12,733 bases of DNA from a virus. Within the stretch, counting starts at the first letter, position 1, and each line of letters opens with the position of its first letter. The DNA is taken from the UHGV virus genome UHGV-0125529. The stretch is one strand, 5' to 3'. The position numbers were made by a program, and so were the translations under genes. Shown here piece after piece: positions 2,718 to 12,617 of the stretch. Under the pieces are notes generated by a model. It was not told where the DNA came from, ran no database searches, and worked only from the letters and a program-made list of their open reading frames with translations.

Positions 2718-3425
2718 TCACGAACTTTTCAGCCACTCCCTTGCCTCGATGTCATCCAGATGGCGAGATTGCTTCAGAATACCAGCCACATACTCCACCT
2801 TTGCTACTTGATGATAAGGCAACGTTATTGGCCTGTGGTCTTGGTTGATGCTTGTAAATTGGTATTCTCCATCTCTGTCATAGCCAAGAACCTTAATCAT
2901 GTTGTGTCCTTCAACGGTTCTGACAAACACCTCATCACCCGGGAATACTTTGGTGTTAGGCTCAATGAGTACATATTCTCCTGATTTTATTCTGGGCCAC
3001 ATGCTGTCTCCTTTCACACGAAGGCCAAAGGCATCTGGATCATCGCTATAAATTTTGAGCCACCCATCGCGCTCTTCGGTCATCTCGATGGCACCATCAA
3101 CACCAAGAATTGCCTCACCAACCACGCGCACTAACCCTTTTTTTAATTTGCCAACAAATGAAAGAGTATCTTCATCATTCGCTCCATTTAACGAAGTGCC
3201 GTGCTGAAGCCAAACAACATCAACGTTTAGAAATTTCGCAAGCGCATTCATTTTTTCCTGACGCGGTAAAGACTCAGCATTAAACCATTTGCTAACGCCT
3301 TTGGACGAAAGAGAAAGGGCACGGGCTATAGCCATTCCCCTACCATGTTCATCAAGACCAGCTTCTTTACAGGCTTGCGCTAGCCGCTGGGCGAATTCTT
3401 TGCGCACTTTTTCATTCTGAACCAT
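2718..3425 (-). CDS. cI: CI-like prophage repressor (N-terminal HTH, C-terminal S24/LexA-type peptidase domain)
   Basis: 235 aa; N-terminal HTH (GMAIARALSLSSKGVSKW); C-terminal VKGDSMWP motif typical of the S24 peptidase catalytic serine with a downstream lysine; divergent from the cro-like gene across a 78-bp operator region. Confidence 0.85.
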   Translation of the reverse strand: MVQNEKVRKEFAQRLAQACKEAGLDEHGRGMAIARALSLSSKGVSKWFNAESLPRQEKMNALAKFLNVDVVWLQHGTSLNGANDEDTLSFVGKLKKGLVRVVGEAILGVDGAIEMTEERDGWLKIYSDDPDAFGLRVKGDSMWPRIKSGEYVLIEPNTKVFPGDEVFVRTVEGHNMIKVLGYDRDGEYQFTSINQDHRPITLPYHQVAKVEYVAGILKQSRHLDDIEAREWLKSS

Positions 3426-8012: not shown

Positions 8013-8607
8013 GGTTTGGGTAGATATCGAAGGAATTCCATTTTATCAGGTTAGCAATAAAGGAAATTTCAGGTCTATTACGAGGGAAATTACAGTAACA
8101 TCAACCAGACAGAGGCCATATAAGAAAATAATTAATGGCACTAGCGTAAAACCATTCAAGTGCAAGTCGACAGGATATCTTCAAATAAAGGTATACGGTA
8201 AGAAATACAGCACCCACAGGATAGTTGCGAAAGCATTCTGTACAGGGTTCTGTGATGGCTTGGTAGTTAATCACAAAAATGGGCAAAGAGATGACAATAG
8301 GGCTGAAAACCTTGAATGGGTATCACATTCTGAAAACTCAAAGCACGGATATAAACAAAATGGAAGAATACCTATATCGCTAGGTAAATTTAGTGGTGAT
8401 CATCCTGCCAGTAAAGCTGTTATTTCTACTGACATGAAAACTGGGGAGGAGGTTTATTATGAAGCAGCTATGGATGCTGTCAGAGAAGGATTTGATAGTT
8501 CGTCAATTAGTCGTTGCTGTAATGGCGAAAGCTCATATCACAAAGGAAGATTCTGGCGATTTGCAAATGAAACAATGAAAGCAAGATGGGGAGACAGGGC
8601 GGCATGA
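8005..8607 (+). CDS. HNH homing endonuclease (NUMOD4-like N-terminal motif, HNH core, C-terminal DNA-binding region)
   Basis: 200 aa; RBS GGAGG 4 nt before the ATG; N-terminal [20 protein letters not shown] (NUMOD4-like); HNH core HRIVAKAF...[25 protein letters not shown]; overlaps the ninB stop by 8 nt. Confidence 0.85.
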
Positions 8608-8753
8608 GGCGACAGCGACGAAGTTTCACCGACATCATCTGCGAAAACTGCAAATACCTTCCAACGAAACGCTCCAGAAATTTAGTTTTGAGCAGAATAC
8701 CATGATGTCAGTGCAAGGGGGAGAAAGTCTCCTCATTATCTGATTCGCAATTT

Positions 8754-8799
8754 ACGTGCATATTTAAATATTGCACGTTACAACGTGCATGTGTATAAT
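8754..8799 (+). promoter_or_regulatory. Sigma70-type promoter with overlapping palindromic operator for the downstream moron gene
   Basis: -35 TTGCAC (8771-8776), 17-bp spacer, consensus -10 TATAAT (8794-8799) with TG dinucleotides immediately upstream. Three copies of the ACGTGCA/TGCACGT motif in alternating orientation (8754-8760, 8772-8778, 8783-8789), including the palindrome TGCACGTT-AC-AACGTGCA across the -35 and spacer. Confidence 0.5.
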
Positions 8800-8830
8800 T
8801 GACTTATCAATCACAACACGAGATATGCTC

Positions 8831-9838
8831 ATGAAAAATGATGATGTTAGTGGGAAGGCCAAAGGCGGTAAGGCACGCGCGGCAAAAATGACAGCAGAGC
8901 AAAGAAAAGAATCCTCAAGAAAGGCTGTTGCCGCAAAAAAAGAAAAAGCTTTATTGCCCGTATCTGCGAATGAGGGAAAGTTAAAGATCGGTGATGCGGA
9001 ATTAGATGTCGCGGTTCTCGAAAATGGACGGCGTATCATATCACAAGCTTCTGTTTTTAAAGCATTTGGCCGACCACAAAGAGGGGGTAGAGCACCTCAA
9101 GAAGAGGGGGTGATCAATATGCCCGCTTTTATGGATGCTGCAAACCTTAAAAAATATATAAATCAAGATGTTATGGGTGTGATCAATAAGGTCAAATACA
9201 AGACGATTACTGGCTCCGTCCAGGAAGGTTATGACGCATCCATAATACCTCTTGTCTGCGATGTTTATTTAAAGGCAAGAGAGGCAGGCGCTATCACCAG
9301 GCCAAACCAGTTAGAGACAGCCAAGAAAGCTGAAATTCTGGTGCGCTCATTAGCTAAAGTCGGAATAATAGCGCTTGTTGATGAAGCGACGGGGTACCAG
9401 CGAGATAGAGAAAAAGATGCGCTCGCCAAAATACTCGAGGCCTTTGTCGCAAAGGAAATTCAACCTTATATTACAACATTTCCTGCTGATTATTATGAAG
9501 AGCTTTTCAGGTTAAGGGGCTTAGAATACCCGCCGGAAAATCCCCGCTTCCGGCCTCAGTATTTTGGCGTTTTGACAAATGATATCGTCTACAAGAGATT
9601 GGCACCAAACATCCTTGAGGAGCTTAAAAAGCAGAACGTAAAGGCCTCAAAAGGTACAAAGTTGTTTCAGGGGCTGACGCCAAATATTGGATATCAAAAA
9701 TTAAGAGAGCATCTGTCATCAACCGTTACGATTATGAAGCTATCTAACGACTATTCAGATTTTATTGCAAAAATGAATCGCCTGCATCCAAGGTTTGAGG
9801 ATGTGAAAACAGACGAACTGGATGATTCAGACAAGTAA
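8831..9838 (+). CDS. Hypothetical protein (335 aa) with lysine-rich N-terminal tail; moron-like cargo gene
   Basis: ATG at 8831 (alternative 8825), weak RBS; N-terminal basic tail KAKGGKARAAKMTAEQRKESSRKAVAAKKEK; has its own promoter/operator upstream and a terminator pair downstream. Family not recognised with confidence. Confidence 0.7.
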   Translation: MKNDDVSGKAKGGKARAAKMTAEQRKESSRKAVAAKKEKALLPVSANEGKLKIGDAELDVAVLENGRRIISQASVFKAFGRPQRGGRAPQEEGVINMPAFMDAANLKKYINQDVMGVINKVKYKTITGSVQEGYDASIIPLVCDVYLKAREAGAITRPNQLETAKKAEILVRSLAKVGIIALVDEATGYQRDREKDALAKILEAFVAKEIQPYITTFPADYYEELFRLRGLEYPPENPRFRPQYFGVLTNDIVYKRLAPNILEELKKQNVKASKGTKLFQGLTPNIGYQKLREHLSSTVTIMKLSNDYSDFIAKMNRLHPRFEDVKTDELDDSDK

Positions 9839-9845
9839 CAGTAAC

Positions 9846-9866
9846 CCACCTTCAGGTGGTTTTTTT
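9846..9866 (+). terminator. Rho-independent terminator
   Basis: CCACCT / AGGTGG stem around a short loop, followed by TTTTTTT, 8 nt after the stop of CDS 8831..9838. Confidence 0.7.
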
Positions 9867-9933
9867 GTACAAATCCTTCAGCGTAAGTTTACCTCCTTCA
9901 CTGCATTACTACTGACCATTGACAACTTAACAA

Positions 9934-9959
9934 ACCCAGCTTCGGCTGGGTTTTTTATT
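9934..9959 (+). terminator. Second rho-independent terminator
   Basis: ACCCAGC-TTCG-GCTGGGT hairpin (tetraloop) followed by TTTTTTATT. Confidence 0.7.
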
Positions 9960-11942: not shown

Positions 11943-12017
11943 GGGTCAGTCGTATAAAGGTCATTACGGAAGGCTGTTAACCTTCTTATCGTGGTTCGAT
12001 TCCCGCTACCCGCTCCA
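11943..12017 (+). tRNA. tRNA-like element, probably degenerate (Asn-type GUU anticodon arm)
   Basis: Perfect anticodon stem-loop GAAGG-CTGTTAA-CCTTC (11969-11985; U33, anticodon GTT, A37); D-arm-like CGTA-N10-TACG (11951-11968); T-loop consensus GGTTCGATTCC (11993-12003) followed at canonical distance by CCA (12015-12017). The T-stem and acceptor stem pair poorly, so it may be a pseudo-tRNA. Confidence 0.3.
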
Positions 12018-12053: not shown

Positions 12054-12185
12054 GTATCTGCGCCACGCCCGGCGCATATCAACCACAGAGCCTTTCGGGG
12101 GTGAGCTTACGGAGTGGTCAGTGTGACTTTCTCTGTGGGCAGATCGCTCCCGGGCGTTGGCTCACCCACCCAAAGGAACGTCACG

Positions 12186-12617
12186 ATGTTTGGTATTTTT
12201 GGTAAAAAAGCCCGCCGAGCGGCAGTGGAAATTAAAAAGTTTGAGAAACGTGATCTGGCACAGGCGGTTATTAATGCTGCCTATCTGGTGGCCTATGCAG
12301 ATGGTGAATGTGAGGCTTCAGAGAAAGCGAAGATCGAGCAGGTCTTGCGTAACCAGCCTGCGTTGTCCGCGTTTACGTCAGAAATTAATGCGATTAGCGC
12401 AACCATTATCGGTCAGCTGGATACGAACTTTAAAATTGGTCGTCGAGCGGCGTTACGTGAGATCGAGGATGTGAAACACGATACGCGTGAAGCGGAAGAC
12501 GTGCTGGATGTGGCGGTGGCCATTGCCGAAGCAGACGGCGAAATAGAGCCGGAAGAGCGCAAGGTGCTGGAAGAGATTGCCGGTGTCCTGGGCCTTCGTC
12601 TGGAGAATCATCTGTGA
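12186..12617 (+). CDS. TerB-like (tellurite-resistance TerB family) domain protein
   Basis: 143 aa from ATG 12186 (RBS AAGGAA 8 nt upstream; track lists a GTG start at 12114). Two acidic repeats of the TerB type (LVAYADGECEASEKAKIEQ and AIAEADGEIEPEERKVLEEI). GC-richer than the phage genes upstream. Confidence 0.65.
   Translation: MFGIFGKKARRAAVEIKKFEKRDLAQAVINAAYLVAYADGECEASEKAKIEQVLRNQPALSAFTSEINAISATIIGQLDTNFKIGRRAALREIEDVKHDTREAEDVLDVAVAIAEADGEIEPEERKVLEEIAGVLGLRLENHL

Follow-up and report, generated by a model that had tools for sequence, protein, structure and literature searches.

The virus genome UHGV-0125529 is represented here by a stretch of 12,733 nucleotides (hereafter, the window), which is the early and nin region of a lambdoid Shiga toxin (Stx)-type phage. 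Its genes are arranged in the order N, CI-type repressor, Cro, CII, O-like initiator, primase-helicase, NinB, HNH endonuclease, P63C cassette, Roi, NinG, and Q. The P63C cassette is contained in positions 8608–9959, a segment that is 99.6% identical to positions 17351–18702 of phage 933W, where the counterpart of its 335-residue gene is L0095 (ST933Wp35), annotated as a "P63C domain-containing protein". The cassette is probably a self-contained accessory unit whose protein would bind its own sites and repress its own promoter. Comparison with ~90 relatives indicates that the unit is mobile and that the sequence of the sites changes together with a single residue of the protein, residue 28.

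Boundaries of the Cassette

The edges of the cassette are defined by comparison with related Stx phages. On the left, the flank shared with phage VT2-Sakai meets the cassette at 8681/8682, and in VT2-Sakai the identical flank runs on into a full-length ninE, followed by orf34 and ant. Sister Stx phages carry ninE-orf34-ant in the slot of the cassette. On the right, homology to VT2-Sakai restarts at 9889, in the last codons of the antirepressor gene ant, and continues through terminator 2 into roi. In the Escherichia coli Stx phages L096 and L098, collinearity with the window ends at 9868, beyond which mnt-arc-ant follows. Because of the left junction with VT2-Sakai and the collinearity with L096 and L098 up to 9868, the cassette proper is placed at approximately 8682–9868 (~1.2 kb), where it truncates ninE and adjoins an ant module that has been lost here (Table 1).

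The truncated ninE and the HNH gene share the sequence ATGA, in which the start of the former overlaps the stop of the latter. The product of the truncated ninE is identical to full-length VT2-Sakai NinE at 25 of 26 N-terminal residues and then ends in seven unrelated residues, and the same partial gene is flagged in RefSeq for strain EDL933 ("NinE family protein, incomplete"). The 160-bp non-coding spacer described in the initial annotation is thus mostly truncated ninE, and the genuinely non-coding DNA upstream of the cassette gene spans only 8706–8830. The GC content is 0.40–0.45 in the cassette, 0.37–0.40 upstream in the HNH gene, and 0.47–0.51 downstream.

By the definition of Hendrix and colleagues, a moron is reportedly a promoter-gene-terminator unit added to the genome of a phage. 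The insertion is absent from collinear relatives, as ninE is split and VT2-Sakai has identical flanks, and a promoter and a terminator belonging to the unit are recognizable in the DNA and are kept in homologs elsewhere. The cassette is carried by 49 of 5,426 complete E. coli genomes and is found in phages of different immunity regions, of the 933W type and of the phi24B type, the window being of the latter. With its rarity, the split ninE, and the recurrence of the unit in other moron slots, the proposal of an accessory moron and not a core nin function is supported.

Table 1. Coordinates of the cassette, its parts, and other genes of the window.
Feature	Position	Strand	Details
Cassette-specific DNA	8682–9868	+	Leader, operator/promoter, gene, terminator 1; left edge from VT2-Sakai comparison, right edge from end of L096/L098 collinearity
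Truncated ninE	8604–8705	+	33 codons; ATG 8604, stop 8703–8705; from translation, VT2-Sakai sequence, RefSeq EDL933
Site 1, ACGTGCA	8754–8760	−	TGCACGT on minus strand; upstream of −35; conserved in homolog alignment
Sigma-70-type promoter, TTGCAC-17-TATAAT	8771–8799	+	−35 at 8771–8776, −10 at 8794–8799; predicted from sequence
Site 2, TGCACGT	8772–8778	+	Overlaps −35 hexamer
Site 3, ACGTGCA	8783–8789	−	In promoter spacer; makes 18-bp palindrome with site 2
Conserved 5′ leader, TCACAACACGAGA	8811–8823	+	Just 5′ of start codon; six enterobacterial homologs
P63C-family gene, 335 aa	8831–9838	+	ATG 8831, stop 9836–9838; L0095/ST933Wp35 of 933W
N-terminal basic motif, GGKARAAKMTAEQRKESSRKAVAAKKEKA	8864–8950	+	Residues 12–40; putative DNA-reading helix, from covariation with operator type
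Ser28	8912–8914	+	Putative specificity residue, from covariation with operator type
P63C domain (PF10546)	9431–9703	+	Residues 201–291
Terminator 1 (own)	9846–9866	+	5-bp GC stem then T7; hairpin and T-tract
ant 3′-end remnant	9889–9915	+	Stop codon 9913–9915; VT2-Sakai and L096/L098 comparison
Terminator 2 (backbone)	9932–9959	+	Between ant and roi; hairpin and T-tract
Nmad5 (nucleotide-modification-associated) protein	77–760	−	Left of N
341-codon open reading frame	1612–2637	−	Between N (762–1211) and CI-type repressor (2718–3425)
HNH endonuclease, 200 aa	8005–8607	+	NUMOD4 and I-HmuI-like modules (homing-endonuclease type)
tRNA-like gene	11943–12012	+	After Q
TerB-domain protein	12114–12617	+	Downstream of tRNA-like gene

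Operator Sites, Promoter, and Terminators

The heptamer ACGTGCA/TGCACGT is concentrated at the cassette promoter. Three of its four copies in the 12.7-kb window fall inside 36 bp, and of the four copies in the 61.7-kb genome of 933W, three are at the cassette, a cluster of a kind seen in 1 of 200 simulated genomes. The initial annotation described three copies over the −35 hexamer and the spacer; all three are real, one overlapping the −35 and one occupying the spacer, but site 1 is upstream of the −35. Sites 2 and 3 together form a perfect 8+8 palindrome, TGCACGTT-AC-AACGTGCA (8772–8789), which has a chance expectation of 0.00 and is absent from all shuffles. The site 2 region, TTGCACGT, is invariant in an alignment of six enterobacterial homologs.

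The promoter sequence TTGCAC-17-TATAAT occurs once in the window, against 0.01 expected. Its description as near-consensus suits the −10 hexamer, which is perfect, but not the −35, which fits the consensus at just three of six positions and for this reason went unlisted by a consensus scanner. Transcription is predicted to start at ~8805–8807. Distant homologs have the same layout, with the −35 within a site and the −10 abutting a site. The leader TCACAACACGAGA, which reads TTCACAACAAAGAG in Salmonella phage SPN9CC, is conserved amid otherwise variable sequence and may help in ribosome binding or in regulation. Rfam found no known RNA element in the leader, the terminators, or the rest of the region. 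Control by the SOS regulator LexA is ruled out by the missing LexA box, as CTGT-N8-ACAG has no match at up to one mismatch near 8600–9000.

Two hairpin/T-tract terminators do follow the gene, as first described, but only the second is strong, and that one lies outside the cassette. Terminator 1 has modest stability (−8.6 kcal/mol, z = −1.2), and homologs in other contexts have a terminator of different sequence at the equivalent place. Terminator 2 (−15.6 kcal/mol, z = −4.1) is assigned to the phage backbone because an identical hairpin is present in cassette-free VT2-Sakai. A further hairpin upstream of the sites (8718–8734) is weak (z = −1.0) and is not claimed as a terminator.

The Cassette Protein

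Alignment of 40 homologs favors the ATG at 8831 as the start of the gene. The RefSeq start for the E. coli protein, an ATG at 8789 that yields 349 residues, is within site 3 and upstream of the −10, and looks wrong. The body of the protein had been called unrecognized, yet profile searches place it in Pfam P63C (84.1 bits against a cut-off of 26.1) and, over residues 3–334, in phrog_2384 (E = 1.8e-146), a family labeled as of unknown function. The P63C domain was reportedly defined in 2002 by Iyer, Koonin and Aravind. All 40 aligned homologs match both profiles. The family comprises more than 7,600 full-length homologs of ~335 residues, which hold 43–60% identity across Proteobacteria, Actinobacteria, Chloroflexi, Planctomycetes, Acidobacteria, and others. 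An invariant ALVDEATGYQ..R block (residues 181–193) and many invariant polar residues mark the all-helical C-terminal half.

The AlphaFold model (pLDDT 77) consists of an N-terminal helical hairpin (residues 9–40, with predicted helices at 9–19 and 22–40), a beta/alpha domain (44–135), and a helical half (138–318). The lysine-rich N-terminus was initially likened to a histone tail; the motif at residues 12–40 is better regarded as a putative DNA-reading head, in which residue 28 tracks the type of site. The motif GGxARAxxLTPEQRxEIARKAAxARW, traced in proteins P0125, P0127, P0128, P0129, and P0131, is not restricted to P63C proteins: it is present in small proteins as a single copy or as two to four tandem copies, and it is also found four times after a GIY-YIG nuclease domain. 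Because it recurs alone, in tandem, and after the GIY-YIG domain, the motif suggests a previously undescribed modular DNA-binding element.

The beta/alpha domain of the model weakly resembles Bro-N/KilA-N, and Foldseek gave weak matches to p63 of phage Mx8 and mostly to a series of Bro, KilA, and antirepressor proteins. The P63C region also weakly matches phrog_2899, "anti-repressor Ant", in 37 of the 40 homologs (best E = 1.6e-5). The protein could accordingly be imagined as an antirepressor-like or Bro/KilA-like regulator that acts on another protein or DNA target, such as the repressor of another prophage, and not in defense. Mx8 p63, the source of the P63C name, is annotated as Ant, and ant modules have repeatedly been replaced or adjoined by the cassette, as in the remnant of the window, in the P63C-mnt-arc-ant order of L096 and L098, and beside Arc/P22_AR_N genes in Morganella and Pseudomonas. 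However, the "Ant" labels of P63C proteins are annotations and not experiments, and Pfam detects P63C alone in the window protein and its 40 homologs, with no ANT, Bro-N, KilA-N, or P22_AR domain. Alignment by hhalign with Sakai Ant and Roi gives probabilities of at most 0.4%, which is no profile similarity, and steady self-repressed expression directed against the CI of the same phage would destabilize lysogeny. Membership in the phage antirepressor family (P22 Ant, ANT-KilAC, or Bro-N) is rejected, as no such domain is detected and similarity to Sakai Ant is absent. An Ant-like regulatory role is possible, given the phrog_2899 match; overall, the antirepressor reading is doubtful.

Searches for other relationships gave little. 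By sequence, no relatives with solved structures were found, no NCBIfam family matched, and PADLOC returned nothing significant, its sole match being to a type I specificity-subunit model (0.005). Identity with a known defense family is set aside, as PADLOC gave no significant match and NCBIfam was empty. In the literature, no paper on the function of the phrog_2384/P63C family was found, nor an experimentally shown function for any member.

Covariation of the Sites with Residue 28

The sites and the gene travel together. One metagenomic lambdoid phage, whose protein is 87% identical, has the gene right behind cI and a terminator, with ACGTGCA-N11-TGCACGT-N4-ACGTGCA ahead of it. Sites of the ACGTGCA type are also present at a Morganella copy (next to mnt-arc-ant), in an Enterobacterales isolate, and at a Janthinobacterium copy of 53% identity. 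In homologs at greater distance, the element is a related one, (A)TGCAAGCA(T) or TGCTTGCA, commonly in two inverted pairs across the promoter, and the last site often covers the start codon. Over 62 loci from many phyla, the 160 bp ahead of the gene are enriched 25-fold in TGCA[AC]G[CT], with a density of 11.3 per kb compared with 0.46 per kb outside it.

As no other gene travels with the cassette, the columns of the protein alignment were checked against site type. One column, residue 28, tracks site type without overlap; it is part of the motif GGxARAxxLTPEERxE[I/S]AxKAAxARW and is located on the predicted helix 22–40. Isoleucine or valine at this position accompanies an AA center (TGC-AA-GCA sites) at 36 of 36 loci, and serine or alanine accompanies an AC center (TGC-AC-G sites) at 12 of 12, with glutamine at one locus each of TA and CA centers. 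By parsimony, 8–9 changes are required on a tree made from residues 45 to the end, and at least five serine/alanine lineages are nearer to isoleucine/valine relatives than to one another. The rule extends to viral contigs outside the set from which it was derived, where isoleucine or valine is paired with AA in 14 of 14 cases and serine never is. In SPN9CC, the isoleucine at the residue 28 position predicts AA sites, and four ATGCAAGCA/TGCTTGCA sites were found there, in the same terminator-sites-leader framework as in the serine-type enterobacterial copies.

The initial annotation took the sites to imply a different regulator, and a separate trans-acting factor, either from the host or another phage protein, might in principle bind them with no involvement of the cassette protein. 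The sites are unlike CI operators and overlap the promoter, and the presence of the cassette in differing immunity regions (933W type and phi24B type) would fit a host factor. However, the sites follow the gene across Proteobacteria, Actinobacteria, Chloroflexi, Planctomycetes, and further groups, where one common host factor is unexpected, and no second gene accompanies the cassette. The sites change in step with residue 28 in at least five lineages, and even closely related hosts differ in site type, with AC in E. coli and AA in Salmonella SPN9CC and in Citrobacter; the LexA box is likewise missing. A separate regulator is very unlikely. The regulator of the sites is most likely the cassette protein itself, because the sites travel with the gene and the operator covaries with residue 28 across phyla.

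A wider regulon marked by the palindrome was also looked for. No second cluster of sites is present in the window or in the 933W genome, and a BLAST search with the promoter region matched only the cassette itself. In IMG/VR, 26 of 50 contigs that bear the palindrome have the gene directly downstream. Of those without the gene, at least one is a cassette-type promoter in a cut-off locus, and the two others inspected are unrelated, being located inside structural genes and next to an XRE-type regulator, respectively. On the window, the 933W genome, and these contigs, a wider regulon is rejected, though the scan for the short motif did not extend to the E. coli chromosome.

Genomic Contexts of the Homologs

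Homologs occupy several kinds of location. In L003/L124 and ~24 records of P22-like Salmonella phages, SPN9CC among them, they come straight after cI, the slot that holds bstA in BTP1 and rexAB in lambda, with the unit arranged as upstream terminator, sites, leader, gene, and terminator. The slot immediately 3′ of the repressor is held in L003/L004 (87% identity) and in SPN9CC-type Salmonella phages (35% identity). Other homologs follow a Mnt-like gene or adjoin Arc/Ant (mnt/arc/ant, immI) in Morganella and Pseudomonas, are antisense within tail operons of P. aeruginosa, reside in a Pseudomonas chromosomal island with pyocin and PAAR genes, or are present in several other E. coli nin regions. 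All of these contexts but the chromosomal island are prophage accessory-gene hot spots. In the phage copies examined, terminators of differing sequence flank the unit on both sides. The hot-spot locations and the flanking terminators support the moron reading.

The position of the gene would also suit a plain delayed-early nin gene, expressed from the promoter PR under N antitermination and silent in the lysogen, with a minor promoter of its own and with sites that serve a lytic DNA role of the protein. It has the orientation of the PR operon and is situated between ninB/ninE and roi-ninG-Q, and both its −35 and terminator 1 are weak. This explanation does not extend to the homologs found after cI behind a terminator, antisense in tail operons, or in islands and insertion sequence (IS) elements, where PR-type read-through is absent. 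Upstream insulating and downstream terminators are kept as features though their sequences differ, and most related phages are without the gene. The delayed-early explanation is unlikely.

Two annotations near homologs merit mention. SPN9CC_0019 is annotated with 409 residues and overlaps cI, and its open reading frame takes in the terminator and the four operator sites (L232 2314–2500); the start of this homolog is likely the ATG at L232 2501. In the Enterobacterales isolate CwR94 (L007 2578–2916), the P63C cassette comes after a DUF3024 gene that matches the PADLOC candidate PDC-S43, and the same DUF3024 gene in 933W (ST933Wp24) belongs to the cI operon. This arrangement suggests that the operon downstream of cI is a stack of candidate defense genes. 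Of 143 immediate neighbors, ~6% match defense models, too weak an association with defense islands to serve as proof.

Association with IS1-Family Elements

At 15 of 75 genome loci from diverse phyla, a gene for an IS1-family-like DDE transposase points away from the P63C gene in divergent orientation, and TGCAAGCA sites lie in the intergenic region that the pair shares. These transposases have ~300 residues, are ~50% identical across phyla, and contain a helix-turn-helix and an invariant D..D..E. At L035 (2983–5310), L038 (2978–5338), and L039 (2942–5066), inverted repeats of 18–19 bp starting with GGTAGTG bound a two-gene IS of ~2.1–2.4 kb. Further pairs are at L014, L051, L054, L055, L064, L067, L069, L070, L078, L081, L083, and L084.

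These pairs, and the three with terminal repeats in particular, raise the alternative that the cassette is a fragment of an IS1-family transposon, with a protein that regulates or assists transposition and was stranded in the phage as a passenger. An IS1 element is recognized by an adjoining transposase and terminal repeats, which are found at L035, L038, and L039; the window, however, has no transposase and no GGTAGTG repeat, and no homolog on a viral contig clusters with those that neighbor a transposase. The phage copies are intact, 99–100% identical among E. coli, and keep their operators, and they are at defined moron slots instead of random insertion points. A transposon fragment is extremely unlikely as the source of the phage cassette.

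InsA of IS1 is a small zinc-finger/helix-turn-helix protein that binds the terminal repeats and self-regulates the mobile element. The P63C gene resembles it in residing within IS1-family elements in many phyla, with sites in the shared control region. The P63C protein differs in being large, in its presumed binding to internal sites, and in its presence in phages without a transposase.

Proposed Mechanism

In the model of self-repression favored here, a lambdoid Stx-type phage would have acquired the cassette within ninE, beside an ant module, and ant would since have been mostly deleted. The cassette product would have three parts: an N-terminal basic helix that reads the sites, the beta/alpha domain, and the strongly conserved helical P63C half as effector. 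Protein bound upstream of the −35, over the −35, and in the spacer would shut off its own sigma-70 promoter. The outcome would be low, self-limited expression independent of CI, Cro, N, and Q, and during lytic growth antiterminated PR transcripts would also pass through the gene. The physical binding, the repression, and the expression in the lysogen are inferred from sequence.

Several observations weigh against this model. The −35 is weak enough for the promoter to go uncalled by the scanner, terminator 1 is weak, and the gene is co-oriented with PR, from which read-through could supply most of its expression in this phage. There is also one exception to the residue rule among the viral contigs, L177, where alanine is paired with AA sites.

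The most likely guess for the effector is a role in conflicts between mobile elements, for example exclusion of superinfecting phages or BstA-type abortive infection, given that homologs hold the cI-N slot and other slots expressed in lysogens. With position and neighbors as suggestive hints, a defense or exclusion role is plausible. The guess of a BstA-like exclusion function is weakened by the non-significant similarity to BstA and by the small share of defense genes among the neighbors. One public transcriptome of EDL933 lists the presumed cassette gene with zero reads.

Comparison with Known Systems

BstA of the Salmonella prophage BTP1 occupies a slot downstream of cI and is neutralized by aba, 63 bp of DNA that contains direct repeats of CCCGCC (Owen et al. 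2021, PMC8585504). The P63C cassette is similar in that it is a single prophage gene of ~300 residues with its own terminator and a cognate, homolog-specific DNA element at its 5′ end; a putative DNA-binding region toward the N-terminus with weak resemblance to KilA-N may be a further parallel. P63C homologs are also directly 3′ of cI in sister Lederbergvirus phages and in L003, whereas the gene of the window is in the nin region and not immediately 3′ of the repressor. The direct repeats of aba differ from the three to four palindromic promoter sites of P63C, which read as an operator. Alignment of the 40 homologs with BstA of BTP1 by hhalign gave a probability of 0.7% (E = 0.084) over a strand-helix piece of only 24 residues; with no significant PADLOC match, homology to BstA is rejected.

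Lambdoid morons and exclusion genes (bor, lom, and rexAB of lambda, sieA and sieB of P22, and stk of 933W) are likewise promoter-gene-terminator units between genes that adjoin in relatives. They share hot spots with the cassette (the cI-N region, the neighborhood of immI, and the tail operon) and vary in presence among close relatives. They differ in using PRM or simple constitutive promoters, whereas the P63C cassette has a conserved multi-site operator presumably read by its own product and spans many phyla, non-phage contexts included. The immI region of P22 (mnt-arc-ant) is also accessory and regulatory, with a promoter covered by palindromic operators, and it adjoins the P63C cassette in several phages. 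Its repressors are the separate small ribbon-helix-helix proteins Arc and Mnt, whereas the cassette has no separate repressor gene and its protein is no homolog of Ant.

The relationship with p63 of the Myxococcus phage Mx8 is a match in both structure and sequence. Fusions of the P63C domain to Bro-N, KilA-N, or Rha are annotated "Ant", and phrog_2899 "Ant" has the domain in common with the cassette protein. What separates phrog_2384 from these fusions and from Mx8 p63 is a fixed architecture of ~335 residues, with the GGxARA...ARW motif at the N-terminus and the ALVDEATGYQ block.

A broader proposal, speculative and with a small chance of being correct, is that P63C/phrog_2384 constitutes a large, phylum-spanning class of self-repressing single-gene "conflict modules" in prophages, at the BstA/RexAB slot and further moron slots, and in IS1-family transposons. 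The N-terminal motif could read the 10-bp palindrome ATGC-NN-GCAT, whose central bases would depend on residue 28. At single copy, the cluster of three to four sites could be an operator. Upon replication of the element, the same cluster could act as a copy-number-dependent decoy that switches the effector off, by analogy with the self-immunity conferred by aba. The helical half with the DEATGYQ block could be a new anti-phage or anti-replication effector.

Other Genes of the Window

The open reading frame at 1612–2637 is in a classic lysogen-expressed slot, which holds stk in 933W and rexAB in lambda, and it gave no match in Pfam or PADLOC. The HNH endonuclease takes the place of a Dam-type methyltransferase in 933W and VT2-Sakai. 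The Nmad5 protein, the tRNA-like gene, and the TerB-domain protein are further accessory content of the window (Table 1).

Significance

The cassette gene is part of the best-studied Shiga toxin phage, 933W, where it shares the early-to-late region with stx2, which lies 2.9 kb downstream, and L0095 has been labeled a "hypothetical protein" since 1999. Should the cassette prove to be ordinary, the annotated start codons and the assignments of the spacer and the terminators would still be corrected. If the protein is an exclusion factor like BstA, it would affect which phages are able to superinfect or recombine with Stx lysogens. If autoregulation is true, the regulator, its operator, and a specificity switch of one residue would all be named, and a family with more than 7,600 members, spread over bacterial phyla in the immunity slots of prophages and in IS1-type transposons, would become tractable.

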